44,725 nt of DNA, taken from the IMG/VR virus record IMGVR_UViG_3300045988_053705, positions 1-44,725 of that record. One strand, 5' to 3'. The stretch is from a virus. Position numbers and translations under genes: made by a program. Positions within the stretch are counted from its first letter, which is position 1; each line of letters starts with the position of its first letter. The notes under the pieces are model-generated. The model was given only the letters and a program-made list of their open reading frames with translations. It did not search any database and had not been told where the DNA came from. This document shows positions 636-44,725 of this stretch, one piece after another.

Positions 636-1391
636 ATGAAACAAACATTATTAGAGATGGTACAGAGAATACTTGAGGCTATTGATGGACAGATGATAGA
701 GTCCATTGAAGATACTCGTGAAGCTATGCAAGTTGCTAGATGTGTTAAAGAAAGCTACGAACATCTGCTGTATACTAGAGACATTAAAGCTAAAGCAGAT
801 CTTGTACAGCTCCATTCAAAATCCAATCTAGAACTTCCAACAGTATTTGAAATTAATGATGACATACAACAGATAAATCTATTCAAATACTATGATGCAG
901 ATAATGAAAGATATGTTGACTTAACTTGGTTAGAGCCTGAGAAGTTCATTGATATGTGTCTTGGGAGAAATCCTACAAAAGAAAATGTACAGAATGTGAA
1001 AGACCCTTCATCTGGTATTAGATACAATGTGTATAATGACAGGGCTCCACAATACTTTACAAGCTTTAATGATAAAGAATTTGTATGTGATGCTTTTAAT
1101 AAAGAAGTTGAACACACTCTAATGGAAGAAAGAACTGTTGTGTATGCTATCAAGGCTCCTGTATTTGAACTTAATGATACTTTTATTCCTGATTTAGCAG
1201 AACAACATTTCTCTTTATTGCTTTCAACAGCTAAGGTTCAGGCTGCATATGAGCTTAATAAAGTCTTTGATCAGCTTGAGAATAACAGAGCAATGAAACA
1301 GAAAGTAACAGCTGATAAGCATGCACAACGTGTAAGAGGACAGGACGGTACCACATGGAAGAATCGAAAGAGGAATGGAAGGGTTATTTAA
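636..1391 (+). CDS. Hypothetical virion/tail-associated protein. Its position before the 833-aa protein is analogous to T7 tail tubular protein A, but no motif supports that.
   Basis: 251-aa ORF with upstream GGAGAAG ribosome-binding site. Synteny with the T7-like tail/core gene order only. Confidence 0.4.
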   Translation: MKQTLLEMVQRILEAIDGQMIESIEDTREAMQVARCVKESYEHLLYTRDIKAKADLVQLHSKSNLELPTVFEINDDIQQINLFKYYDADNERYVDLTWLEPEKFIDMCLGRNPTKENVQNVKDPSSGIRYNVYNDRAPQYFTSFNDKEFVCDAFNKEVEHTLMEERTVVYAIKAPVFELNDTFIPDLAEQHFSLLLSTAKVQAAYELNKVFDQLENNRAMKQKVTADKHAQRVRGQDGTTWKNRKRNGRVI

Positions 1392-1612
1392 TAGTTAGAT
1401 GCGGGAGATTCTGGAAGGTTCTTAATGTACATAGCTATATCGGAGGATCTTTCACAATGCTTGATAAAGCCCGTGCATACATAGATGCTATTACTGTAGA
1501 TAAGAACCATAAAGAATTTAAAAGAAAACTTAAAGAGATTAGAAAAGAACCTAATATCGCTAAAAGAACTAGGGAATATAAAAAACTATGCCAGACTCAC
1601 AAGTCTTTATAG
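1355..1612 (+). CDS. Hypothetical small protein. It overlaps the end of the previous gene, so the true start is probably internal.
   Basis: ORF track only. Confidence 0.3.
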   Translation: MEESKEEWKGYLIVRCGRFWKVLNVHSYIGGSFTMLDKARAYIDAITVDKNHKEFKRKLKEIRKEPNIAKRTREYKKLCQTHKSL

Positions 1613-4089
1613 CACCTTTTATTGGTGGATTGAATACTGAAACAAGCTCTATTCAAGATGCTCCTCTGAATACTTCTGATGAACTTAACTGTTCAATTTA
1701 TCCTGAAGGTATTAGAGGTAGACGCTACGGTATTACAATCGAAAGAGATGGACAAAGCTTTGAAGTGCCTGAAGAGACTCAATCATCTTATTCAGGATTC
1801 TATTGGAAGAACGTAGGAAAGACTGCTAAAGATCTTATTGTACAGCAGGCAGGTTCTCATTTGTATTTCTATGATGCTAGTACCAAACCCTTCAGTAAAA
1901 GTAAAGAGCCTGATTCAGTAGACTTATCAAAGTATGTAACAGATACTGCAAACTTCTACAGCTATCCAGTAAACTATTCTTCTGGTGATGGTAAGCTAAT
2001 GGTTGTGTCTAAGTATATGAAGCCTTTATATATATCTTATGACTTTGATAATCAAGAATTTAAAGTAGATATCATAAGCCTTAAGTACAGAGACTTAGAA
2101 GGACTTGATGATGGTCTTAAAGTAGATGCACAACCTACTGATTTATCTGATGAACACGAATACAATCTTTTAAATCAAGGATGGACACGTCAACAGATAG
2201 AAGCATTCCATACAAAGGTCTCTAGATACCCTTCTAATAACCTTCAATGGTTTATTGGTAAGGATGATTCAGGTGCTTTTAATACAGAGAAACTATTAGC
2301 AACTTACTTTGGAAATACACCAGCTCCTAAAGGACATTACATACTTGATTACTTTGATAGAGATAGAGGGTCTGCATCAGGTATTCTTTTAGGAACTGCT
2401 AGACAAGCTTCCTACAGTCTTAATCAGAACTGGGGATACTCTTCTAGAAGTTGGCATGTGTCCCCTATTCGTAATATATCTGTAGTTATTCCTTCATCAG
2501 TAGGTACTTCAAAGACCTGTGTAGTAAACTTCTCAACATTAATTACAAAGCTTGCTAAAGCTTCTTTAGGTACCTATAGAGGTAATGCAAGAATGAAGAT
2601 ATGGGGTCTTAAAGAAGGTAACTGGATTGAAGTATTCTCCGATGTACACTATTTCTCAGGCCCCGAAATATATACTTTAGAATATCCTACTAATGATACT
2701 GCATATGAACAGTACAAATTCACTGCAGAGTTTTATGATGGAGCTACTACAAGTGATGCAGGAGGTTGTCCTACACAGTTAACAGTATCTTTGCAGCTAG
2801 CTATTACAGAAGATGGTAACCCTTTCCCGTACACTCACGGACTTGATATGATTGCTGATGTAGCTTACATGTCTGGTAAATACTTTTATCTTTCTGGTGA
2901 TACTGTGTTATTCTCTCAGACCATTAAAGAGGATAGTAGTGGCTTTGATAAATGCTATCAAGATGCTGATCCAACTTCTGAAGAGATATCAGATCTTTTA
3001 CCAACTGACGGAGGCTATGTAAAATTTCAAACAATGGGTGATGGTATAGCCTTAGAAGTATTTAATAGAGGTGTGATAGTCTTTGGTAGAGATATTGTGT
3101 TTGGTCTTATCAGTCCCTCTACAGGTAGATTTACAGCTACTGAATATGATACTGTAGAGCTATCCAGAGCAGGTATTATAGGTCCTAGAACAGTTGTACA
3201 AGCTAATAACGTAGTCTACTACTGGTCTCCTTTAGGTATCTTTTCTATAGGCATTAACTACAATACCGACAATATCTTAACAGCTTCTAACATCTCTCAG
3301 AATACTATTCAAAGTTTTTATAATGATCTTCCTAAGTATTCTAAAGAACACTGTCAAGCTTCCTTTGACTACGTTAATAACAGAATTTACTGGTTCTATC
3401 CTTTAGATGTAGAAGATCTTTCAAAGCTTAATGGTTGTCTTGTGTATGATCTTACATATAATGCTCTCTATCCTTTAAAGATATCTGATGGAGGAAAAGT
3501 AGTAGCTGTGTTCAATACTGTTGACAGCTTTGAAATTCAACCTACACAATATGTAAGAGCTAATGGTGCTCGTGTTATAGCAGGTGGTAAATATGTAATA
3601 GCACAAGAGCAAGTAAATGACTACAACAGATATGTAGCAATACAACACAATATCATTACAGAAGATGGTAAGTTATCTTTTGGAGACTTTAATAGCAGAG
3701 AGTTTATTGATTGGGATACTAATGGATACGATAGTTATATGGTGTCTAAGCCTATTGTGTTGCAGGATACATACTTGAATAAGCAAGTTCCAATACTTCA
3801 AACATTATTTAAGAGAACTGAAGAGAGAGAATTAAGAACACCTAGAACATACTTAGCAGCTTCTGGTGCATATTTAAGAATGAGATGGGGCTGGTCAATG
3901 GATTCTAAAAGTAATAGATGGGATCTTATTCAGAATTCTTACAGACCTCAAAAGGATTTCTTGAATGATGAATACGTAGAATCTAGAATACATGTAAGAG
4001 GAAGAGGTAAAAGCTTTCAAATAGAAGTACGTAATGATTCTAATAAAGATTTTAAATTAGCTGGCATTAATTTATTAGTGAGACAATAA
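1588..4089 (+). CDS. Large virion protein, putatively a tail tubular/nozzle protein (T7 gp12-like by size and position)
   Basis: 833-aa ORF in the structural operon, followed by the Gly/Ala-rich and giant proteins as in the T7 gp12-gp14-gp15/16 arrangement. No motif-level confirmation. Confidence 0.45.
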   Translation: MPDSQVFIAPFIGGLNTETSSIQDAPLNTSDELNCSIYPEGIRGRRYGITIERDGQSFEVPEETQSSYSGFYWKNVGKTAKDLIVQQAGSHLYFYDASTKPFSKSKEPDSVDLSKYVTDTANFYSYPVNYSSGDGKLMVVSKYMKPLYISYDFDNQEFKVDIISLKYRDLEGLDDGLKVDAQPTDLSDEHEYNLLNQGWTRQQIEAFHTKVSRYPSNNLQWFIGKDDSGAFNTEKLLATYFGNTPAPKGHYILDYFDRDRGSASGILLGTARQASYSLNQNWGYSSRSWHVSPIRNISVVIPSSVGTSKTCVVNFSTLITKLAKASLGTYRGNARMKIWGLKEGNWIEVFSDVHYFSGPEIYTLEYPTNDTAYEQYKFTAEFYDGATTSDAGGCPTQLTVSLQLAITEDGNPFPYTHGLDMIADVAYMSGKYFYLSGDTVLFSQTIKEDSSGFDKCYQDADPTSEEISDLLPTDGGYVKFQTMGDGIALEVFNRGVIVFGRDIVFGLISPSTGRFTATEYDTVELSRAGIIGPRTVVQANNVVYYWSPLGIFSIGINYNTDNILTASNISQNTIQSFYNDLPKYSKEHCQASFDYVNNRIYWFYPLDVEDLSKLNGCLVYDLTYNALYPLKISDGGKVVAVFNTVDSFEIQPTQYVRANGARVIAGGKYVIAQEQVNDYNRYVAIQHNIITEDGKLSFGDFNSREFIDWDTNGYDSYMVSKPIVLQDTYLNKQVPILQTLFKRTEERELRTPRTYLAASGAYLRMRWGWSMDSKSNRWDLIQNSYRPQKDFLNDEYVESRIHVRGRGKSFQIEVRNDSNKDFKLAGINLLVRQ

Positions 4090-4745
4090 TGGGAATATAT
4101 AGTAGTGGTAGTAAATGGAGAAGGAGAGCTCAAGGTGCTGAAGCTGAAGCAGTAGCTCTACAAAAGGAACAGCAGTATGAAGAGTTTGGTAGAAACTTGT
4201 TAGCTAATATCAGACAGGAAAGACTTGCTAGAGCAGAGCTTGCTACAACCAGTCAATCAGATTTTGCTACATCTTCTTCAGCTATTGGAGCTATGTCTAA
4301 TATTGACAGTTCCTTAGCAGGTGAAATGGGATACTCTTATCAGTCCTCATTAAGAATGCAGAGGATCTCTGATCTACAACAGCAAGCTAATGAATATTAT
4401 AAGAAGTATCAGAAGCAACAGAGAACAAGATCATTGGCTTTCCAAACAACTGGTATAGTAGCTGGAGCAGCTGCTGGAGGATTGTTGGCACCAGTTGGAG
4501 CAGGTCTTGGAGGTGCTGCTGCAGGTGCTGGAATAGGTCAAGGTGTAGGCCAAGTAGCTACTGGAGATTATGCTACAGGTGTTTCTAATATGCTTCAAGG
4601 TGCTTTCAGATACGCAGGCTTAAGAGGCAAAGCACCTATTAATATTCCGGTTGATAACTCTAGATACCTTAATGCTTCTACAGGTGGTGTTGGTTCAAGA
4701 TCTAATGTAAGTAACTCTAATGGGATTTGGATATGGAAAGATTAA
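4089..4745 (+). CDS. Gly/Ala-rich internal virion protein (T7 gp14-like by position)
   Basis: 218 aa. Low-complexity GAAAGGLLAPVGAGLGGAAAGAGIGQG segment. ATGA start-stop overlap with the upstream gene. Confidence 0.5.
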   Translation: MGIYSSGSKWRRRAQGAEAEAVALQKEQQYEEFGRNLLANIRQERLARAELATTSQSDFATSSSAIGAMSNIDSSLAGEMGYSYQSSLRMQRISDLQQQANEYYKKYQKQQRTRSLAFQTTGIVAGAAAGGLLAPVGAGLGGAAAGAGIGQGVGQVATGDYATGVSNMLQGAFRYAGLRGKAPINIPVDNSRYLNASTGGVGSRSNVSNSNGIWIWKD

Positions 4746-7700
4746 CTTTAGGAAATGCTGCAGAAGAATCACGTGTAAACTTTAATGTAACTTCTGAAGA
4801 TATGCCACAGTCTCAGAGAGAGCGGGAATATGAACTGCAACAGAGAGCTGGTGTTAGTCCTTCAGCAAACTTTAAAGGAGTAAGAGCACAGTTAGCACAG
4901 CGGCAAGTAGCAGATGAATTAGATATTCTTTATAGAGCTTCAGAGAGTGCTATGTTAGAAGGTGCAGAGCCTGCTAATGTTACTGAAGCAGTACAAAACT
5001 ATGCATTAAAAGCTTCTGTGGATGATGAAGATATATCTTTAGAGAGAGAAGCAGCAATAAACAGCATAGCAGAAGCTTACAATGAAGATGAGCAGACGGC
5101 TATTAATGCTGCTAATAGTGCATTTACAGAAGATCAGCTAGATGCATTAGCCAAAGCAGAGATTATTGAGAGCTGGAGACAGAAGAATATAGAGAAAGCA
5201 GAGAACTCAAGAGACTGGAAACGCTTTGGTAAGATGTTGAGCAATCCTTTAGAATACAAACCTGAAGCAGGAGATTTAGATACTCTTGCATATGCTGGTG
5301 AAACTGCCATAAGAACTCTTATACCTGCATTAGGTGCTAACATCTTAGACAGTAATGTGTTCCCTTTTGGTAAAGAGTCTGCAATAGAGCTTTCATCAGA
5401 TACTATCAGAAATAGACAGAAGAAATATATCTGGGATTATGCCAATTCTCATAGCCAACAAGAGCTTAAACAGTTCCTTGATCAGGTAGATGAGTATATG
5501 TGGAAGAAATCTTGGGCTGGTCCTGCCACTATTAATGCCTTTATGCAAGAATTTAACACCAATCCCAATACTCTTAATGACTTCTTTGGAGGATTTGAAG
5601 TAGCTACACCAGTTATTAGAGCTGTTAATAATTCTATTAGAGCTGCTAAAGCTGCTGGTAAAGTAACACAAGCTAAGACAGGTATCATCACAGCTGTTAA
5701 AGAAGGTGATAGAGCTGCAGTAGTTGAGGAGTATGTGTTACCTAATGCTCTTAAACCTTTCCAAGGCAGTATGACTACAAGTTACAGCAAGAAAATAGAG
5801 GCTGAAGTAGCTGATGTACTGGCTGATAGAGAAGCTATGGAGATCATTAATAAGACTAGAGCGGCTGGTGTTATGGATGATGAAGAACTCTTTGTAAATA
5901 GAGAATTGTTTAAGGAAAACTTCAAAGCACTCTATGGTAAAGAGCTTAATGATCTTGCAGATGTTAATGCTATAGATCTTGTACAAGGTCCTTCAGGAGA
6001 AACATTAGTAGCTGTTGATATTGGTACAGGTATGGATGGTAGTCATGCAATGGATGAAGCAGCTGCATACTTTAAAGCTAAGAAACTTGGATTGCCTGAA
6101 GGAAGCTTTACTGTAGCTCACACAGATGGCGAAGGCTTCTTCATTAGATATATGCAACCTTTAAAAGATGAAGACTTTACACCTATTGAAGGAGCTATTA
6201 AAGACTTCAAAGCTAAAGGATTTACTCGTATGTTCGCTGGTGCTGGTATAAGTACTAGCAAAAGATTTCAAGAAAGAGTTGTTGAAGCCGCTAGAAAAGA
6301 AGTTGTATTAAGAGCAAAGCTTGATGAGAAGTATGGTAAGTCTCTCAGATCTCTTAATAAGCATGAAGCTGATTCTTTAGATGATTTATACGTTAAGGGC
6401 CAACAAGCTAATGAAGGTAAAGGTGCATGGTTTTCACCAGATCAATTAGAAGATATGGGTGTATCTGAAAAAGTTAAGAAAGCCTACTATGACTTTAAAC
6501 ACTTATCTGATGCAGACTACATCATTAATAACGATAAGCTTGTAAGAACTTTAACAAGAGAAGGTTATCAGCTGTATGGAGATAACATCATAGGCAAGCG
6601 TATTAACATTGATGATATCACTGAAGATGTCTATGATACTATGAAAATCAAAGACTTAGATACAACTAAGATGCCCTTTGAAGACTTTAAGAATCTTGCA
6701 AAAGATAAAGTAATTGTTAAAGGTCTCAGTATTTCAAGCACTAAAGATAACTTTAATTACGCTTTGATTAATCCTGAAGAGCTTAAAGAAGGCCCATTGC
6801 CTCGTTTCTTATTGAACTATCAAGGTGGTGGAAGACGTGCGTATACTTTTGGCAATATGTATGTGCAGAATGGTAGAACTTTTTATGGTAATAAGAATAT
6901 CTATAATGGCCCTGCTAAAACCTTAAGAGCTGGTACAAATAGAAAAGCTTTGCAACAGTATGTAGATGAAGGCAATAGAGCTATTAGAATCTACAGAGCT
7001 GCTAAAGAAGATGGTGACATTGCAACAGCTGCTAGAAGAATAGCACAAGCACAGTTCAAGTACTTTAATGTTGAAACTTGGGAAGACCTTGACAATATTA
7101 TGAAGACCTTTATAGATCCTTCTCATGACTTGCAACTGCTTGAAGAAGGCGGTAAGTATGTGTACAACAATACTTTAAAGAGTATTGATCAAGCTGGTGT
7201 TAGTTCTACTGATGCTCTCTATGAACTTGCTAGGGCTAGAGATAGATACTTTAATGAACGTGGAGCTTTGTTAGACTCCTTAAATGGTGATCACGCTCCT
7301 ATCAAAAGTATCTTTGAGATCTATGATAAGACTCTTGCCAAAGCTGCATACACTAATACTATTGATGAAGCTGAACAATGGATGGCAAAAGAATTTGATA
7401 GAAACTTTAGACAGTTTATTGATACTCGTTACTGGGATAGTACTGGTAAAACTTCTTTAGATACTCTTAGAGATGCCCCTTTAATGAAGATAGATGAAGC
7501 TCCTGAAGGTATGAGAGATGGTATCAGAGCTGCTATGCGTTTCAGAGATCGTTACAATATCTTTGCTATGGCTGAAACACCAGCTGATAAATACATTAAG
7601 CATGTCTTAACCTGGACTGCAAGAGGCTTGAGCAATGTTGGTGAGAAAATAAGCATACCTAGAGATGCTAAAGCATGGCAGAAGTTAGCTGACACAAGAC

Positions 7701-9217
7701 CTGATCAATTTATGACAGGCATTGGTTTCCATTTTGCTATGGGCATATACAATACTGCACAGTTTATGAAGCAGTCTTTTGGTGTTCTTACTAAGCTTGC
7801 AATTCATCCTGTTCATGGCTCTCATGCATTGCTAGCATCTCCCTTTGTATCTATGGCTTATGCTTTTAAAGACTCCAATAAGTTTATGAAAGAGACAGCT
7901 AATGTTTTGAACAGACTTATTGGAATTTCTAGAAAAGATCTTGATAGATTCTTCGAGTATTGTGATTGGTATGGTTCTTTTAAAGTACAGGATCTTAGAC
8001 CAGGTATGTCAAGAGAGCATGCAGATATGCTAAGACGTGCTAGATTTATTACTAAGAACTCTACAATGTTTGCAAATGCTGGTAACAAGATAGATTACTT
8101 TGTATCAGATCTTACATCGTTCTTATCAAATCCTAAAGCATCATTTGCAGAGATTGCACAACACTCTGATGATCTTTATATTAACATGAGTAGGTTTGAT
8201 ATCAGTAAGATGCAGGCTTCTGCTGGTGTTTTGCAACAGTGGTTAACATATCCTGCACGTATGACTGAAGCATTATTCAATACAAGACTTACTAAAGCAC
8301 AACGTATAAGACTTGCAACAAGTCAGTTAGCTTTATGGGGTGTTGGTGGAACTCTTGGAGCTGAAGTAGGATTGAATGCCTATAGATTCTTTACAGAGAA
8401 TACAGATATACCTGAAGAAGTAGCAAATGATATTAGTAATGGTCTATTAACAAATCTTGCTAGGGCTCATGGCTATGATCTTCAAGAGGGTCTGGGTTTA
8501 TTAGATACTATCGATACTTACTTCAATATCTTTAATACAGATAAAGGTCTGTTAGAGTTGAATATGCCAGGTCTTAAGACAGGAGGACAGCTTGCATCAG
8601 TTTATAACGCTGTTAAAGAAGTCTTTGCACCTGCTACGGATGTGCCCAGTCTTAATACATGGCTTGTTAATAGAGCTTCTGATAGATCTGCACCAGCATC
8701 ATTAAGAAACATCTCCAATGCTGTATTAGGTGCAAAGACAGGACAGATGTATGATAGCAATAGACAGCTTATAAGAGACAATGTGAGTACTCAAGATATT
8801 GTTATGCGTCTCATAGGCTTTAAAGATATTAATGAAGAGCGTGTACACCTTAATAAGTATGTGCTTAGAGACTATAGAGAAGAAATATCAGAAGCAGCTA
8901 AAAGTCTTAAACCTTTTATGGATCAGTTAGTAGACTATAGAAGCATGGGCAAGTATGAAGACTCTGCTGCTATGACTGATGACTACTGGAAAGTATGGGA
9001 GAACTATAAGAAAGCCTTTGGTGAAGCTAAATCAAAGATCACATACAATCATTTAGAGTATCAGAATGCAGTTGACTTTGATCTTACACAGGCTGTAGAG
9101 AAATTCTATAGACTTCCTACAACAACTGCTGAAGTGTCTGAGAAAAATATGCAGGATGTCACAGGTCTTAGAAAAGTTATTAGAGATTATTTGTTAATGA
9201 AAGAAGGACAAAAGTAA
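4727..9217 (+). CDS. Giant internal virion (core/ejection) protein, 1496 aa
   Basis: Single uninterrupted 4.5 kb ORF in the late operon, consistent in size and position with the gp16-class proteins of T7-like podoviruses. All antisense ORFs inside it are short. Confidence 0.65.
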   Translation: MDMERLTLGNAAEESRVNFNVTSEDMPQSQREREYELQQRAGVSPSANFKGVRAQLAQRQVADELDILYRASESAMLEGAEPANVTEAVQNYALKASVDDEDISLEREAAINSIAEAYNEDEQTAINAANSAFTEDQLDALAKAEIIESWRQKNIEKAENSRDWKRFGKMLSNPLEYKPEAGDLDTLAYAGETAIRTLIPALGANILDSNVFPFGKESAIELSSDTIRNRQKKYIWDYANSHSQQELKQFLDQVDEYMWKKSWAGPATINAFMQEFNTNPNTLNDFFGGFEVATPVIRAVNNSIRAAKAAGKVTQAKTGIITAVKEGDRAAVVEEYVLPNALKPFQGSMTTSYSKKIEAEVADVLADREAMEIINKTRAAGVMDDEELFVNRELFKENFKALYGKELNDLADVNAIDLVQGPSGETLVAVDIGTGMDGSHAMDEAAAYFKAKKLGLPEGSFTVAHTDGEGFFIRYMQPLKDEDFTPIEGAIKDFKAKGFTRMFAGAGISTSKRFQERVVEAARKEVVLRAKLDEKYGKSLRSLNKHEADSLDDLYVKGQQANEGKGAWFSPDQLEDMGVSEKVKKAYYDFKHLSDADYIINNDKLVRTLTREGYQLYGDNIIGKRINIDDITEDVYDTMKIKDLDTTKMPFEDFKNLAKDKVIVKGLSISSTKDNFNYALINPEELKEGPLPRFLLNYQGGGRRAYTFGNMYVQNGRTFYGNKNIYNGPAKTLRAGTNRKALQQYVDEGNRAIRIYRAAKEDGDIATAARRIAQAQFKYFNVETWEDLDNIMKTFIDPSHDLQLLEEGGKYVYNNTLKSIDQAGVSSTDALYELARARDRYFNERGALLDSLNGDHAPIKSIFEIYDKTLAKAAYTNTIDEAEQWMAKEFDRNFRQFIDTRYWDSTGKTSLDTLRDAPLMKIDEAPEGMRDGIRAAMRFRDRYNIFAMAETPADKYIKHVLTWTARGLSNVGEKISIPRDAKAWQKLADTRPDQFMTGIGFHFAMGIYNTAQFMKQSFGVLTKLAIHPVHGSHALLASPFVSMAYAFKDSNKFMKETANVLNRLIGISRKDLDRFFEYCDWYGSFKVQDLRPGMSREHADMLRRARFITKNSTMFANAGNKIDYFVSDLTSFLSNPKASFAEIAQHSDDLYINMSRFDISKMQASAGVLQQWLTYPARMTEALFNTRLTKAQRIRLATSQLALWGVGGTLGAEVGLNAYRFFTENTDIPEEVANDISNGLLTNLARAHGYDLQEGLGLLDTIDTYFNIFNTDKGLLELNMPGLKTGGQLASVYNAVKEVFAPATDVPSLNTWLVNRASDRSAPASLRNISNAVLGAKTGQMYDSNRQLIRDNVSTQDIVMRLIGFKDINEERVHLNKYVLRDYREEISEAAKSLKPFMDQLVDYRSMGKYEDSAAMTDDYWKVWENYKKAFGEAKSKITYNHLEYQNAVDFDLTQAVEKFYRLPTTTAEVSEKNMQDVTGLRKVIRDYLLMKEGQK

Positions 9218-11445
9218 TGGTACAAATGGCAGATCAAAATACTCGTATCAATGGTAGATATGCTCCTACAGTAAACTATAGTGCAGCTGTAAAAGCTCCT
9301 ACACCTACTCCTAGAAATATTCCTAAGTATAAGGCAGATGTTAATATAGATCTGTCTGGACTTGGTAGAGCTATTGAAGAGCTTACTAAAACTAAACCAG
9401 ACTATAATGGATATGTGCTAGCTGTTGATGAAATTGTACAAGGACAGAGACAGGGCAGATATAACTATGAGCAAGCTGAAACACGTATTAGAGCTTTAAC
9501 TGATCAGTACATGGCTCAAGGTTATGATGCATTAGAGCTTGCAAAGAGACGTGAGAAGTTTGATGGAGGTTTGTATGCTCTGTCACAGCAACAGCAAAAG
9601 ATTATTGCAGACCATGAGACAAAGAGACAGACTGCTGAAATAGAAGAGTTCAGAGCTGCCAATGATTATGCTAAAGGGTGGACTGATAGTAGAGTTAAGA
9701 TGTTCATTGAAAGATCTAATCATATTCAAGACACTGTTAATTACTATAACACAGCTCTCAGTGATATGGGATTGTCTGATGAAGATAGAGAGAAGCTTAC
9801 TGTAGAACGTGATAAAGCTTTTGATGAGCTTGGTGTTCTTAATATGCATAGGATTATCCAGAATAAGTTGAATGCTGGAGAAGAGATTACTCAAGAGTTC
9901 TTTACAGACTTAGGTAATATGGTAGTACAGCAGGGTGTTGCTAATGGTATGGACTATAGAGAAGCTACCCTTAACAAAGATGCTATGATGCGTTCAATGG
10001 ATGTAGGTACTCTTATGCAGAACAAGTATAAGGATATTGTAGACAATACAGAAGCTATGAAGAAAGCTATGAACTACCTTGATGCAGGTACTCAGCAAGC
10101 TGTAAGAAGCATCCCTGAAGGTGCTTTAATGTACAACATTCCTCATGAGGTTATTCCATATCTTAGACAAGGTAATGAAAACTTCTTATCACAGTTTGCT
10201 AATAAAGTCTATAACACAGATACAATAGATAATCAACAGTATCTCTTAGGTCAACCTATTGATAGAGCTATTGACAAAGGTTCTATTCAGGTATCCTCTA
10301 CAGTTCTTAAAGCTAACTTAACAGATAGTAACTATCCTTTATCATTGCTATCAAGACAAGCTGTTGTATTCTCTCAAGATTCTGTAGACTATAATGGTGA
10401 CCTTAAGAACCTTACACCTGATAAAGCTAAAGTAGTGTCTAAGAATGCTAATGATATACTTGGTATTTTAAAGGATCCTGCATTAGCTAGAAGAATGCAA
10501 CAGGCTGAACCAGATCTTAAGAAGCGCTATGAAGATAACACACAAGCTATTGAAGGTGCTAAAGCTTATGCAGATGCTATCATAAAAGATCCTACAGCTG
10601 TTGATAACTTGAATACCTTAATCAATTCTTTTCAAGCTGATAGATTGCGCTATGATGAATCCACTGGTAACCTTGTTATGACTGAAGAAGGAGCTTTCAA
10701 CTGGAAAGATGCAAGCACTTACCTGCCTTCATTAGCTGGTGCAGTTGGTAGAATCTTTAGCAATGATGAAACACTAGCAGAAGTAGATAAGTTTAACAGT
10801 TCTTTTGCAGGCATATCTCCTACAGCTCGTAAAGGTCTTATTAATAACCTCTCTAATGGTGCTGTAAAGCCTCTAGCAGCAGGAGAAAAGGTTGTCAATA
10901 GGGAAGATCAAAGCTTATTCAGTAAGGCTGTAGGAGGGCTTAGAACAGGCGCTACGAATACTTTAAAAGAAGCAGAAGCATTGATGAAGTTTGCTGATAG
11001 ATTGGAGCAGTCTGTTAAATCTGCTGAAGCTACTGGTGCTGTTACTGAAGAAGGTAAACTAAAGAGAGATAGAAAAGCTATAGCAGAAGCAAGAGCAAAG
11101 GCACAAGAGCTTAGAGGATCTGCTAAAGTATCTGGTTCTATTCCTATTGCAGGTGCTTCCTTAAGACCTATTGAAGATTCTGATGGACAGCTTACACCAG
11201 ATATGTATGAGGATGTTCAACAGGTAGGTAAAGATAAAATAGATATACCTGCTAAGCCTAACTTAAAAGGTATCATAGACAAGAACAGTCCTGCATATAA
11301 GAATGTTGAGAATAGAATAAAAGATATTGAAAGCTCTATTGCAGAGATGGATAATGCTGATAGAGAGTATGATGCTAATGAGTATCTAAAGCTTTCAACA
11401 GAACGTAGAGTACTCTTACAGCTATTGGATAGAATGGAGGAGTAA
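9217..11445 (+). CDS. Internal virion protein, 742 aa, with predicted coiled-coil and acidic regions
   Basis: ATGG overlap with the preceding stop. Size and position resemble T7 gp15-class core proteins. Confidence 0.6.
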   Translation: MVQMADQNTRINGRYAPTVNYSAAVKAPTPTPRNIPKYKADVNIDLSGLGRAIEELTKTKPDYNGYVLAVDEIVQGQRQGRYNYEQAETRIRALTDQYMAQGYDALELAKRREKFDGGLYALSQQQQKIIADHETKRQTAEIEEFRAANDYAKGWTDSRVKMFIERSNHIQDTVNYYNTALSDMGLSDEDREKLTVERDKAFDELGVLNMHRIIQNKLNAGEEITQEFFTDLGNMVVQQGVANGMDYREATLNKDAMMRSMDVGTLMQNKYKDIVDNTEAMKKAMNYLDAGTQQAVRSIPEGALMYNIPHEVIPYLRQGNENFLSQFANKVYNTDTIDNQQYLLGQPIDRAIDKGSIQVSSTVLKANLTDSNYPLSLLSRQAVVFSQDSVDYNGDLKNLTPDKAKVVSKNANDILGILKDPALARRMQQAEPDLKKRYEDNTQAIEGAKAYADAIIKDPTAVDNLNTLINSFQADRLRYDESTGNLVMTEEGAFNWKDASTYLPSLAGAVGRIFSNDETLAEVDKFNSSFAGISPTARKGLINNLSNGAVKPLAAGEKVVNREDQSLFSKAVGGLRTGATNTLKEAEALMKFADRLEQSVKSAEATGAVTEEGKLKRDRKAIAEARAKAQELRGSAKVSGSIPIAGASLRPIEDSDGQLTPDMYEDVQQVGKDKIDIPAKPNLKGIIDKNSPAYKNVENRIKDIESSIAEMDNADREYDANEYLKLSTERRVLLQLLDRMEE

Positions 11446-13534: not shown

Positions 13535-13856
13535 AGCCAGCTATATCAATCCAGCTATCCTCATGTCTCTCATCTGATTTAAGTCTTGCGCATTTCATAA
13601 GGATCATCATAATAGCTACATCTTCAGGATGAATAACAATAGAAGTATCGCCATCATCTAAATAAGCTGTCCAAAGCATTGCAATATTTCTAAAGTTATC
13701 TTCAGGAGATCCGTAATGTTCTTCTCTAGCACCTGTAATAATTTCTTTAGCTTTATCTAATAACTCTGTTCGCTTCATTTCTCTTCTCTCCAATAGCTTC
13801 ATAAACTTCATCAAGCAATTCCATAATTTCACCCATGATTCTATAGCAGTCATCAA
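13497..13856 (-). CDS. Hypothetical protein with conserved HYGSPEDNFRNIAMLWTAYL motif
   Basis: ORF track. I recall this motif from uncharacterised phage proteins but cannot name the family. Confidence 0.4.
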   Translation of the reverse strand: MMTAIESWVKLWNCLMKFMKLLERREMKRTELLDKAKEIITGAREEHYGSPEDNFRNIAMLWTAYLDDGDTSIVIHPEDVAIMMILMKCARLKSDERHEDSWIDIAGYASCGSEIVSHG

Positions 13857-13930
13857 GCTTTACATTGTCTAGCTGTAACATATCATGACCATACATATCT
13901 TCTTCAGCATCATAGAATATTTCAGTAACA

Positions 13931-14290
13931 CTAAGCGGCATCATCTGGTGTATCTCCTAAATGTGCAACAGCAGCGTCTTCACAGAAACATTTACGACTC
14001 TCAAACTCGCTGTATTTGCCTACATTATATTCTGTTGAAGGTCTTATGTAGCCCATAACGCGACTGTACACTTCACAAATAGTTCTCTTACTGCCATCTT
14101 TAAAAGTTACTGTCATGTCTCCACTAACTTCTGCAACATCATCTTCAGGGATACGATTAGCTTTTAATATCCCTCTTGCCCACTCGCTTAACATTATTCT
14201 TCCTCCATTTATCAAATTGAAATAAACAACTATCGCAACCTTTAGCAGATATAGGCAAGATAGCACCACACTTAGGACAAAGCTTTGCAC
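13931..14290 (-). CDS. Small protein with an RVxGY glycyl-radical-like motif resembling the NrdD C-terminus. The true start is probably the internal Met at about 14194.
   Basis: The C-terminal segment YSRVMGYIRPSTEYNVGKYSEFESRK matches, in order, the RVCGY glycyl-radical motif and a following N-x-G-K-x-x-E-x-x-x-R spacing recalled from NrdD C-termini, without the Cys. Confidence 0.35.
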   Translation of the reverse strand: MQSFVLSVVLSCLYLLKVAIVVYFNLINGGRIMLSEWARGILKANRIPEDDVAEVSGDMTVTFKDGSKRTICEVYSRVMGYIRPSTEYNVGKYSEFESRKCFCEDAAVAHLGDTPDDAA

Positions 14291-14393
14291 AACTATTTAA
14301 GAACTTCTGTTGTCTTATTAAAAACTTTGGGATATAAGGACCCTGTGCCTGTCTGTATGCAAGCTCTGCATAGTTCTTATTTATGTTGAACAC
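14157..14393 (-). CDS. Zinc-ribbon protein (CxxC...CPKCG...CxxC). Possibly the upstream half of a split NrdD C-terminal module.
   Basis: CAKLCPKCGAILPISAKGCDSC. It overlaps the next ORF in a different frame. Confidence 0.4.
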   Translation of the reverse strand: MFNINKNYAELAYRQAQGPYIPKFLIRQQKFLNSCAKLCPKCGAILPISAKGCDSCLFQFDKWRKNNVKRVGKRDIKS

Positions 14394-26463: not shown

Positions 26464-28143
26464 TTACCTTTTAAATACTTGTATTGTTACTTTGTCATCT
26501 TCAACAACTCTCAACAAGATAGCATCTAAAGAAGTCTCTTTAATGTATCCTTTAAGATGTTCTTTCAAAGACTTTAAAGAAGGCATAGATACTGAAGAAT
26601 TAATACCTTTATAAAGATATAAACATCCTTCAGAGAATACATTTCTATCTGTTCTGGCACCTCTAATACCGAAGTGAGAAGTAGAAATTTCACGTGAAGA
26701 AGATGTGATAGAATCTAATAGAATGCCACCATTAATATAAGTAATGACAGCAAGAGATGAAACAGGACTTGAAAAATACTTTGAGTATTCGTGTTTACTC
26801 TTTTCTTCAGGAATATTTAAACCTGTTATAGGACATCTCTTAGGTGTAAAGAGAACACCATTAACGATAACGCTAGGATTATCTAAGTTTATAGTGCCAA
26901 TGCTACTACAAGACTTTGCATATGTAAGGAAATCAGAGTAATCTCTCATCCATTCTGGAATATACTCTGCATCAATATTGATACCACAGCCATACTTAAA
27001 GTCTACTTTATTTCTTCTGTTATCAGCTATTAAAGAATCTGAATAGAACTTTAATTCTTCTCTAAAGATTCTATACAATCCTTTGCCTCCATTAAAAAGA
27101 CTTCTTCTCTCATCTGAACTATGAGGACCATCACAGATAGCATTGAACTTATCTTTTAAGAACTTGCAACAGAATTCAATAAGAAGATTGTAGTCACTGT
27201 TACGATACTTTTTATCAAGCAACAAGTTTTTATTTTCATCAGCATATCCCCAAGCTCTCCATAACATATTAGGACTATGGAATTTTGTGCCAGAGATAAC
27301 AGATGTTTTCATCACATCCCCTGTAGTTCCATACACAATAAAGCTTTCATCAGCTGTTACAAAAGGAACAAAGCCATACCAACATTTATAATTAGATGAT
27401 AGAGCAAAGCAAGATTGAAAAGCATTACCATAAGAACAATAGAAATAATCAATAGGATTCTTAGAGATAACAATAGCTTTCATTTCAGAGTACATAGAGA
27501 GCCTATCTGTTTGCTTACGTTCAACAAGGAACTGCTTAAGTCTGTATCTATCAACTTCTGAAAGAGGAATGAAGATACGATTGTTAGTAACTTTAAAGTC
27601 TTTGAAAGCTTCAAGTACAAACTCGTGTTCCTTATTAGCGTACTCATAGATTTCTTTACCAAGTCCATTAGGATATTGTGACAAAGCTAGTAAAGCTTTC
27701 AATTCTTCCAAAGGATTAAGAGACTTCAAAGGACAGTCAACAGATTGAGAGTAATCAAAGGAAGCATCAATTTCATCCATATGCTTTTTGAAATCAGGAT
27801 TTAACAGACACTCATCAATATCAGGATAAGCATCAATACCAGCAGCTTTAAGGAGTCTTAAAGTATCAATGTAATTATCGAAAGATACTGTTAAAGATAC
27901 TTTACCTTCAATCTTTTTAAGATACTCTTCATTTATCAACGAATAAACTTTCTTATCTCTGAGAACATAGCTATTAAATACTTCCAAGAACTCTTTAAGT
28001 TTATCATCGATAGCCATAATAAAGGTATCACTTTCAGATTTATCTATCTTTGAAAGGTCTTCTCTCTTCATTTTAGACACATCAATATCTTTAAACAATA
28101 ATTCAATAGCTCTAAAAGCTCTTATAATCTCTTCGTTTTGCAC
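26464..28143 (-). CDS. Large early protein of unknown function (559 aa)
   Basis: Uninterrupted ORF, first large gene after the early-region terminator. I recognise no motifs. Confidence 0.5.
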   Translation of the reverse strand: MQNEEIIRAFRAIELLFKDIDVSKMKREDLSKIDKSESDTFIMAIDDKLKEFLEVFNSYVLRDKKVYSLINEEYLKKIEGKVSLTVSFDNYIDTLRLLKAAGIDAYPDIDECLLNPDFKKHMDEIDASFDYSQSVDCPLKSLNPLEELKALLALSQYPNGLGKEIYEYANKEHEFVLEAFKDFKVTNNRIFIPLSEVDRYRLKQFLVERKQTDRLSMYSEMKAIVISKNPIDYFYCSYGNAFQSCFALSSNYKCWYGFVPFVTADESFIVYGTTGDVMKTSVISGTKFHSPNMLWRAWGYADENKNLLLDKKYRNSDYNLLIEFCCKFLKDKFNAICDGPHSSDERRSLFNGGKGLYRIFREELKFYSDSLIADNRRNKVDFKYGCGINIDAEYIPEWMRDYSDFLTYAKSCSSIGTINLDNPSVIVNGVLFTPKRCPITGLNIPEEKSKHEYSKYFSSPVSSLAVITYINGGILLDSITSSSREISTSHFGIRGARTDRNVFSEGCLYLYKGINSSVSMPSLKSLKEHLKGYIKETSLDAILLRVVEDDKVTIQVFKR

Positions 28144-44354: not shown

Positions 44355-44658
44355 ACTTGACTTAGCTGAAGAGAGACTATTCACAGGTCTCTTTGGAAGC
44401 ACTACATTAGATGCAAAAGCTCAATGGCTGTTAAAGTTTCTTGGTATAGATATAAATGATTTAATACAAAATTTTGAAGGCGTAGTGAAACCTTTGATGG
44501 ATGATGATGGGCTGGTTAATGCTGAATTAGCTCGCTCGTTAGTCTCAACAAAATCTCCACTGCTCTCTAATATCATACCTACTTATAACTTTCGTTTGGT
44601 TGATGTGTCTGATGGTGTTGTAGAACTATTGAAAGGACTATTAAATGGAAGAATATAA
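44329..44658 (+). CDS. Hypothetical protein (109 aa). Its 3' end lies within the terminal repeat.
   Basis: ORF track. Confidence 0.4.
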   Translation: MLTDVRQNELDLAEERLFTGLFGSTTLDAKAQWLLKFLGIDINDLIQNFEGVVKPLMDDDGLVNAELARSLVSTKSPLLSNIIPTYNFRLVDVSDGVVELLKGLLNGRI

Positions 44659-44725
44659 GAAGAGGATTTGTGCTGGCATCAGTATGGTGCTTGAGAAATC
44701 TGAAAAGATTGGTAGAGAAAAAAGA
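44607..44725. repeat. Terminal direct repeat (copy 2)
   Basis: Identical to 1..119. Confidence 0.9.

Follow-up and report, generated by a model that had tools for sequence, protein, structure and literature searches.

Small autonomous glycyl-radical proteins are known as spare parts of pyruvate formate-lyase (PFL): YfiD (GrcA) of Escherichia coli and Y06I of phage T4 replace the damaged glycyl-radical part of that enzyme, and Y06I sets the precedent for a phage-encoded copy (PMC8683613). Spare parts for other enzymes were called 'possible' in 2021 (PMC8683613), and a review of 2026 knows them for formate lyases only (PMC13450708). The glycyl-radical-enzyme field asks whether autonomous radical proteins exist beyond PFL. 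Here we describe ORF B, an open reading frame (ORF) for a free-standing 87-residue protein related to the C-terminal glycyl-radical domain (GRD) of NrdD, the class III ribonucleotide reductase (RNR). It lies in a phage sequence of 44,725 nt (IMGVR_UViG_3300045988_053705; the window, with coordinates counted from its first letter). We consider it probable, with real reserve, that the phage supplies ORF B as the radical subunit of a two-piece class III RNR, to be activated by NrdG of the host and docked into the host's large subunit.

Like GrcA/YfiD and Y06I, ORF B is small and free-standing and consists essentially of one radical domain (the core, residues 40-69). For PFL and YfiD it is established that a detached radical domain can receive its radical from the activase before insertion (PMC8683613); by homology and analogy, ORF B is presumably activated by its partner's activase and inserted in trans as well. 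Unlike them, ORF B has no PFL-type homology and its partner would be a class III RNR, not PFL; that partner is probably shortened by gene structure, whereas the GrcA partner is shortened by oxygen cleavage. With the one-piece NrdD (E. coli, radical residue Gly681; phage T4; PF13597, TIGR02487) ORF B shares R-V-x-G-Y and [FY]N.GK..E...R, but it is a separate protein with no barrel or zinc ribbon on the same chain, has Met in place of Cys, and is encoded by a genome that lacks both the large subunit and the activase. Two fused bacterial NrdDs (L038 and L079; L-numbers label related phage or bacterial contigs and loci) carry the same CEVWTRVMGYHRP core as ORF B on one chain.

RNRs encoded in two pieces have been published for class II (NrdJa/NrdJb of Pseudomonas aeruginosa and other gamma-proteobacteria) and class I (NrdA-a/NrdA-b of Aeromonas phage Aeh1), as have phage nrdD genes with an intron or an intein (PMC3267527, PMC9669993, PMC3653736). 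In NrdJa/NrdJb and Aeh1 NrdA the catalytic chain comes from two adjacent genes, as in the two-piece NrdD described below, and is active when assembled; unlike ORF B, the detached piece of these class I and II enzymes bears no radical cofactor. We know of no phage that carries only the small piece of a split class I or II RNR. Our literature search found neither a split NrdD nor an NrdD-type autonomous radical protein, with a remark in Wei et al. (2014) or Siedow et al. (1999) still possible. An earlier reading of the window from its sequence only had likewise known of no NrdD-type spare part, and the stand-alone NrdD-type glycyl-radical protein that it listed among its explanations is the one that our data favour.

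ORF B encodes a free-standing NrdD-type glycyl-radical domain

The two overlapping small ORFs that the sequence-only reading had pointed out are present on the minus strand (Table 1); the overlap of ORF A and ORF B is 38 nt and ORF B lies in the +1 frame. The ORF listing gave ORF B as 13931-14290 with a GTG start, and we prefer the internal ATG at 14192-14194. All homologues begin at the equivalent of its MLSEW, and a GGAGG stands 7 nt before the ATG; the product is therefore 87 aa.

ORF B matched the very end of the Pfam NRDD model (E 4.2e-6, 26.1 bits; residues 34-70 on model positions 528-562 of 562) and of TIGR02487 (positions 550-579 of 581; 21.7 bits against a cut-off of 326). About the last 30 positions of two PRK NrdD models also matched, and a tblastn search with ORF B hit the C-terminus of the NrdD of ANMV-1 virus. 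When ORF B was aligned in MAFFT with the E. coli NrdD C-terminus and the fused proteins L038 and L079, SRVMGY fell on RRVCGY, which makes Gly48 of ORF B the equivalent of E. coli NrdD Gly681, and YNVGKYSEFESRK fell on E. coli FNAGKQEEVKRRV. The C-terminal NrdD motif, R-V-x-G-Y with N.GK..E...R downstream, is thus present in ORF B (SRVMGY...YNVGKYSEFESRK), while the barrel with its finger-loop cysteines and the same-chain four-Cys zinc ribbon are both lacking from the 87 residues. Judged by sequence, ORF B is homologous to the C-terminal GRD of class III NrdD, far above chance. The PFL-type domain (Pfam Gly_radical, PF01228) gave no match to ORF B at E<=10, and PHROGs holds no family for ORF A or ORF B.

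The Met of RVMGY, in which the sequence-only reading saw a peculiar replacement of the Cys of RVCGY, turned out to be the norm of the clade. The radical Gly is retained in all 78 motif-bearing viral small ORFs, 76 of which read RVMGY and 2 RCMGY, and RVMGY also occurs in the fused L038 and L079. Against the PROSITE pattern PS00850, which we take to be [STIV]-x-R-[IVT]-[CSA]-G-Y-x-[GACV], the ORF B peptide YSRVMGYIR mismatches by eye at positions 1, 5 and 9. The fused enzymes (WTRVMGYHR) and the whole clade miss it likewise, whereas E. coli TRRVCGYLG fits; the mismatch is a clade trait, not a defect.

Structure prediction with AlphaFold2 placed RVMG, at low confidence, at the tip of a beta-hairpin (strands 40-44 and 49-53), and modelled residues 1-40 with a predicted local distance difference test score (pLDDT) of about 82. 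No PDB sequence was matched by the ORF B family profile or the core peptide even at E<=10; only the fused full-length relative L079 reached solved NrdDs (8p23, 9d3x, 4coi, 1h78), with alignments that end at the zinc ribbon.

Class III NrdD is encoded in two pieces in many bacteria

A word-indexed search returned 34 close homologues of ORF B (48-95 aa, 55-99% identity), and an exhaustive profile search returned 3789 representative clusters at E<=1e-3, 467 of them at E<=1e-10. The best 150 clusters are all 41-124 aa long. The exact ORF B protein was seen on 54 contigs, with lengths up to 46 kb. The family, to which ORF B conforms, consists of free-standing ORFs of about 50-125 aa with the core CE[VI][WY][ST]R[VC]MGY.RP...[FY]N.GK..E...R.

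Bacterial counts refer to the best 80 loci; a scan of one genome per species gave 590 confirmed stretches. At 74 of the 80 loci nrdD is split, 2 are truly fused, and 4 lie at contig ends or have no large gene nearby. The order at split loci is large NrdD, small ORF and usually nrdG, which is missing in two. The alignment of the large NrdDs always stops at residue 668 of the L007 protein, right after the zinc ribbon CPKHGY..CPIC. The distance from the large to the small gene varies between -502 and +375 nt, and all three frames occur; this excludes both sequencing error and read-through as the origin of the split. Programmed read-through was considered in its own right and ruled out, since the small ORF shares the frame of the large gene at 22 of 74 loci, about the one third expected by chance.

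Loci L007-L009 encode a 686-aa protein with ATP-cone and NRDD domains, then an 80-aa homologue of ORF B, then a radical S-adenosylmethionine (SAM) activase. The same order was found in cultured Ralstonia solanacearum (L172, 953-3880; 683 aa, 58 aa, activase) and on plasmid pHG1 of Cupriavidus necator H16 (L173, 777-3853; 676 aa and 66 aa, separated by 142 nt, followed by the activase). The anaerobic RNR of pHG1 was reportedly the subject of a genetic study in 1999. RefSeq annotates a free-standing small protein of 54-67 aa in Halomonadaceae, Chromobacterium, Duganella and Paucibacter. The RefSeq small ORFs of Halomonadaceae, Chromobacterium, Duganella, R. solanacearum and C. necator pHG1 belong to the ORF B family and share with it the core CE[VI][WY][ST]RVMGY.RP...[FY]N.GK; they differ in sitting in an operon of large nrdD, small gene and nrdG and in having a short N-terminus, whereas ORF B stands alone and has an extra N-terminal domain of 39 residues.

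The bacterial small subunits clear the Pfam NRDD cut-off (26.5-33.9 bits), and neither Pfam nor NCBIfam has a dedicated profile model for them. They go by the name 'anaerobic ribonucleoside-triphosphate reductase' in RefSeq and 'oxidoreductase' in UniProt; at present such ORFs are annotated like full reductases or as hypothetical proteins. In many bacteria class III NrdD is thus naturally encoded by two genes, one for a large subunit with ATP-cone, barrel and zinc ribbon and one for a radical-hairpin subunit of 50-90 aa, and in these natural splits the zinc ribbon stays on the large subunit. The locus points to an NrdD-type counterpart of the PFL spare parts, abundant (thousands of sequence clusters) and present in cultivable bacteria, including R. 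solanacearum, C. necator H16, Halomonas and Chromobacterium.

Most viral loci with the small gene lack a nearby large one

Positions 1-119 of the window are identical to 44607-44725, which leaves 44,606 unique bases; because of this exact end repeat we take the window to be a complete phage genome, circularly assembled or terminally redundant. The phage is a gut phage. Neither a large NrdD nor NrdG or any radical-SAM protein was found in the complete 44.6 kb by tblastn or by Pfam and PHROG scans of 40 ORFs. Viral counts refer to the best 80 viral loci, with the large gene sought within 4 kb: 67 of these have the small ORF without a large NrdD, 10 have a large and small pair, and the L007 query detected NrdG in none. 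Phages have captured the small NrdD gene repeatedly, mostly without the rest of the enzyme.

In L004-L006 a 575-aa NRDD protein ends in ...CPKHGYIAGEHKYCPICEHELEATRLIKENCEC, and its gene overlaps the start of a 77-aa ORF B homologue by 7 nt. Large and small genes occupy a syntenic slot in L004-L006, L095-L099 and L102, and the gene order of the relatives is Metallophos, resolvase, [ORF A], [large nrdD], small gene, [dCTP deaminase/dUTPase], DUF6378, lysozyme, RNase H, with variable genes in brackets. The resolvase is the conserved left border of this slot (synteny with L001, L004, L095 and L102). In the window ORF A and the resolvase lie upstream of the small gene and no large nrdD adjoins it. 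From this synteny, the window lineage has no large gene at the conserved slot: it lost the large nrdD and kept only the small gene.

The prevalence of small genes without a large partner also suits a GrcA-like spare part, in which a one-piece host NrdD is cleaved by oxygen at its radical Gly and the stub is replaced by NrdG-activated ORF B. GrcA has the same architecture of a small free-standing radical domain, T4 Y06I is a phage precedent (PMC8683613), and hosts could include bacteria with a fused NrdD. We nevertheless find this reading unlikely. The nearest cellular homologues of ORF B are the small subunits of naturally split enzymes (84% core identity), the best 150 relatives are without exception small proteins, the large subunit paired with the small one in phage relatives is truncated by design and not by damage, and in a one-piece enzyme the cleaved domain would still be attached by way of the zinc ribbon. 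Since two-piece NrdD is widespread in bacteria, a replacement subunit is the likelier role for ORF B than a repair part for an oxygen-cleaved enzyme.

Other insertions were seen at this junction. Between the ORF A and ORF B homologues of L002 lies a NUMOD4 and HNH_3 homing endonuclease gene (406-840), that is, in the slot of the large nrdD, and the junction accordingly resembles a hot spot at which mobile elements insert and genes are lost. In L102 an intein splits the large nrdD (1254-3992) between its two finger-loop cysteines (RSM|CPLTGDT...LMTHN|CRLRLD), and a 258-aa LAGLIDADG ORF breaks the small gene (4001-5029) right after RVMG; the final 33 residues of this ORF make up the second half of the small protein. 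A group I intron inserted at the codon of the radical glycine is the probable cause of the interruption, although Rfam found none at this gene. Half-proteins P0029-P0034 show the same kind of interruption.

ORF B is under purifying selection and resembles the small subunit of a probable gut alphaproteobacterial host

If the large nrdD was deleted, ORF B could be a functionless leftover that has yet to erode, and the sequence-only reading had offered a decaying remnant as one explanation. That the large gene occupies the same slot in relatives, and that the slot attracts insertions (the HNH gene of L002, the intein and LAGLIDADG ORF of L102), would fit such a history. Stand-alone copies of ORF B (window, L001, L091-L094, L101) are nevertheless intact in dozens of diverged phages at near-saturation of synonymous sites: the proportion of synonymous differences (pS) is 0.6-0.9 and that of non-synonymous differences (pN) 0.2-0.4, with dN/dS of 0.1-0.4 where dS could be computed. 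Conservation extends to the start codon, the ribosome-binding site, the length and the radical motif, and the identical protein recurs on the 54 contigs mentioned above. With pN so far below pS in stand-alone copies a decaying remnant is excluded, and a leftover too young to have eroded is very improbable. ORF B is under purifying selection.

The 37 residues from C40 to V76, which reach 7 residues into the tail, are 84% identical to the small subunit of L007, from a metagenome-assembled genome (MAG) of a gut alphaproteobacterium, as opposed to at most 59% for other bacterial groups, and CFCED is common to ORF B and L007. The GC content is 36% in the window and 33% at the alphaproteobacterial MAG loci. 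These similarities point to gut Alphaproteobacteria as the probable host group, and the 3' part of the window ORF B may have been swapped with a host gene.

The tail of ORF B combines two motifs. CFCE[DE]KAV is common to alphaproteobacterial small subunits, and the PDDAA/PDDIA end is conserved in the phage clade. In alphaproteobacterial small subunits (L007 2158-2400) and several phage copies we observed a Cys-rich tail that ends in AAE (CFCEDKAVVGCEARECVC...MAAE). The tail that follows the core may bind a metal or serve in docking.

ORF A is a separate zinc-ribbon gene

The sequence-only reading had taken ORF A and ORF B for one split mini-module that preserves the order and spacing of the NrdD C-terminus, zinc ribbon first and glycyl loop second. 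Half of this holds: the GRD is real, and the zinc ribbon next to it is a coincidence. The zinc ribbon of ORF A itself also stands, except that the first pair is CxxxC, not CxxC as described (C35-x3-C39-P-K-C42-G ... G-C53-D-S-C56; CAKLCPKCG...GCDSC). ORF A has a start of its own, with an AAGGAG Shine-Dalgarno 7 nt 5' of its GTG, and overlaps the end of the resolvase gene. Where ORF B matched NRDD in the profile searches, ORF A gave no match to that family at E<=10. When the ORF A family was compared with the C-termini of 80 large subunits in hhalign, the probability was 3% over 21 columns around one CPxC.

Homologues of ORF A were found in 10 loci (L001-L003, L090-L094, L095, L102), and pairs of ORF A and ORF B homologues recur in related phages. 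In L095 and L102 the ORF A homologue lies upstream of an intact large nrdD, in a different frame. The four ribbon Cys of CPxCG...GCxxC are invariant among the homologues, with a mean pS of 0.69 against a pN of 0.34. The protein database holds only 3 clusters of ORF A, and its AlphaFold2 model, built from only 4 sequences, reached a pLDDT of 57. We conclude that ORF A is an independent conserved gene whose zinc ribbon is unrelated to that of NrdD. The possibility that it is a zinc ribbon left over after deletion of the large subunit was considered and is ruled out by the L095/L102 synteny and the hhalign result.

The overlap of 38 nt, and an ORF order that mimics the order within NrdD, had also suggested that ORF A and ORF B are one gene, interrupted by a sequencing error or read through a programmed +1 frameshift. 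This is hardly credible in view of the same data. The two-ORF arrangement recurs in contigs that are 50-70% identical, with different stop positions and varying overlap geometry; ORF B has its own GGAGG and ATG; the gene that follows ORF A is a large nrdD in L095 and L102, and in L002 it is an HNH gene; and ORF A has no homology to the NrdD ribbon.

A proposed role in host nucleotide reduction

Given that the radical end piece is a separate gene in many bacteria, the phage probably plugs ORF B into the host enzyme. The first step of the mechanism that we propose, translation of ORF B from its own ribosome-binding site within a replication and nucleotide-metabolism operon, is seen in the sequence. 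The host NrdG, a radical-SAM activase, would then abstract the C-alpha hydrogen of Gly48, and activated ORF B would dock into a host large NrdD that itself has no radical domain. Docking would put the glycyl radical beside the finger-loop cysteines so that nucleotide reduction could start. The phage would in this way top up or replace the enzyme part that oxygen destroys and that may be scarce after host gene shut-off, and the deoxynucleoside triphosphate (dNTP) supply would be sustained for its family A DNA polymerase.

ORF B might instead be a decoy or regulator: by competing against the host small subunit for access to either NrdG or the large subunit, it would throttle or re-tune host reduction. 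The N-terminal domain and the acidic PDDAA tail are phage-specific, have no bacterial counterpart and could mediate such other interactions. A decoy would have no use for the radical Gly, yet the Gly and its flanks are kept in every motif-bearing viral small ORF; the phage encodes a DNA polymerase and a primase-helicase but lacks an RNR, and hence needs dNTPs; and sister phages pair the same protein with a large subunit of their own. Because the radical Gly is retained without exception and the phage must rely on its host for dNTP synthesis, we regard an inhibitory role as decidedly improbable.

Several observations weigh against ORF B as the radical subunit of a host enzyme. Its Pfam NRDD score is 0.1 bit under the gathering cut-off (26.1 against 26.2). 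The isolated AlphaFold2 model has a mean pLDDT of 64 and falls below 50 in the GRD, and a Foldseek search of the PDB with it returned nothing below E 1, so that it gives no structural match; we attribute the weak model to the GRD hairpin being expected to fold only inside the barrel. The N-terminal 39 residues are specific to phages and have no counterpart in bacterial small subunits, where only 17-30 residues precede the core; this domain is kept in phages both with and without their own large subunit. Other members of the phage clade are 54-70% identical to alphaproteobacterial small subunits, no closer than phages that bear a large subunit, and adaptation to the host is therefore no general signal. 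The host assignment draws on sequence similarity and habitat only, and a two-piece NrdD in that host is presumed. What we observe is the structure of the genes, their homology and conservation, and the lack of partner genes in the phage; activation, docking and benefit are what we infer.

A more general proposal, that class III RNRs are commonly two-piece enzymes with an exchangeable glycyl-radical cartridge of 50-90 aa and that many phages carry the cartridge only and load it via the host activase, seems to us evenly balanced between right and wrong. If this is true, no autonomous glycyl-radical protein outside the PFL family would precede ORF B, which would also exemplify a new type of minimal auxiliary metabolic gene. 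With confirmation, class III RNR would gain a two-subunit architecture, a simple system would be at hand in which to study the installation of a radical by the activase on a detached domain and the docking of this domain, and a phage would be seen to boost a host enzyme that is essential by providing its sacrificial part of 87 residues and nothing more.

Features of the window

Table 1. Positions of ORF A, ORF B, their parts and the bordering genes in the window
Feature	Coordinates	Strand	Basis or remark
ORF B, free-standing NrdD-type glycyl-radical protein, 87 aa	13931..14194	-	Pfam NRDD, homologues; stop 13931-13933
Shine-Dalgarno GGAGG, 7 nt 5' of ORF B ATG	14202..14206	-	read from sequence
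ORF B N-terminal domain, residues 1-39 (MLSEWARGILKANRIPEDDVAEVSGDMTVTFKDGSKRTI)	14078..14194	-	phage-clade-specific; predicted one helix and beta strands
Glycyl-radical core, ORF B residues 40-69 (CEVYSRVMGYIRPSTEYNVGKYSEFESRK)	13988..14077	-	aligns with E. coli NrdD C-terminus, L038, L079
Gly48 codon GGC, predicted radical site (E. coli NrdD Gly681)	14051..14053	-	alignment
ORF B C-terminal tail, residues 70-87 (CFCEDAAVAHLGDTPDDAA)	13934..13987	-	CFCED motif, acidic PDDAA end
ORF A, conserved zinc-ribbon protein, 78 aa	14157..14393	-	GTG start; neighbour of NrdD module
ORF A zinc-ribbon core C39-P-K-C42-G ... C53-D-S-C56	14226..14279	-	sub-cut-off Pfam UPF0547, DZR, Zn_Ribbon_1
RuvC-like Holliday junction resolvase, 162 aa	14377..14865	-	PHROG 1770, E 1e-23
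DUF6378 protein, 119 aa	13497..13856	-	Pfam DUF6378, E 7e-31

ORF A and ORF B lie inside a long minus-strand block of replication and nucleotide-metabolism genes. The window codes for a terminase, a family A DNA polymerase, a primase-helicase, a Gp2.5-like single-stranded DNA-binding protein, a Cas4-like nuclease, an RNase H and a lysozyme. Cultured phages include no close relative of the window, only four short, weak DNA matches to single genes. No tRNA and no Rfam family was found in the window, and promoter and terminator scans around the ORFs gave chance-level results only.

Several large ORFs have no Pfam match at E<=0.001: 1588-4089 (+, 833 aa), 4727-9217 (+, 1496 aa), 9217-11445 (+, 742 aa) and 26464-28143 (-, 559 aa). 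The last of these, in the replication block, is also without a PHROG match. A 63-aa ORF at 13753-13944 (-) overlaps the ORF B stop by 14 nt; it has no Pfam or PHROG match and is kept in L001 (KKVTEVFYDPEED...). The DUF6378 gene is the conserved right border of the module and lies downstream of the small subunit in L001, in L004-L006 and in every relative examined. In L004-L006 a dCTP deaminase/dUTPase gene sits between the small subunit and DUF6378, and this position suggests a role for DUF6378 in nucleotide metabolism.

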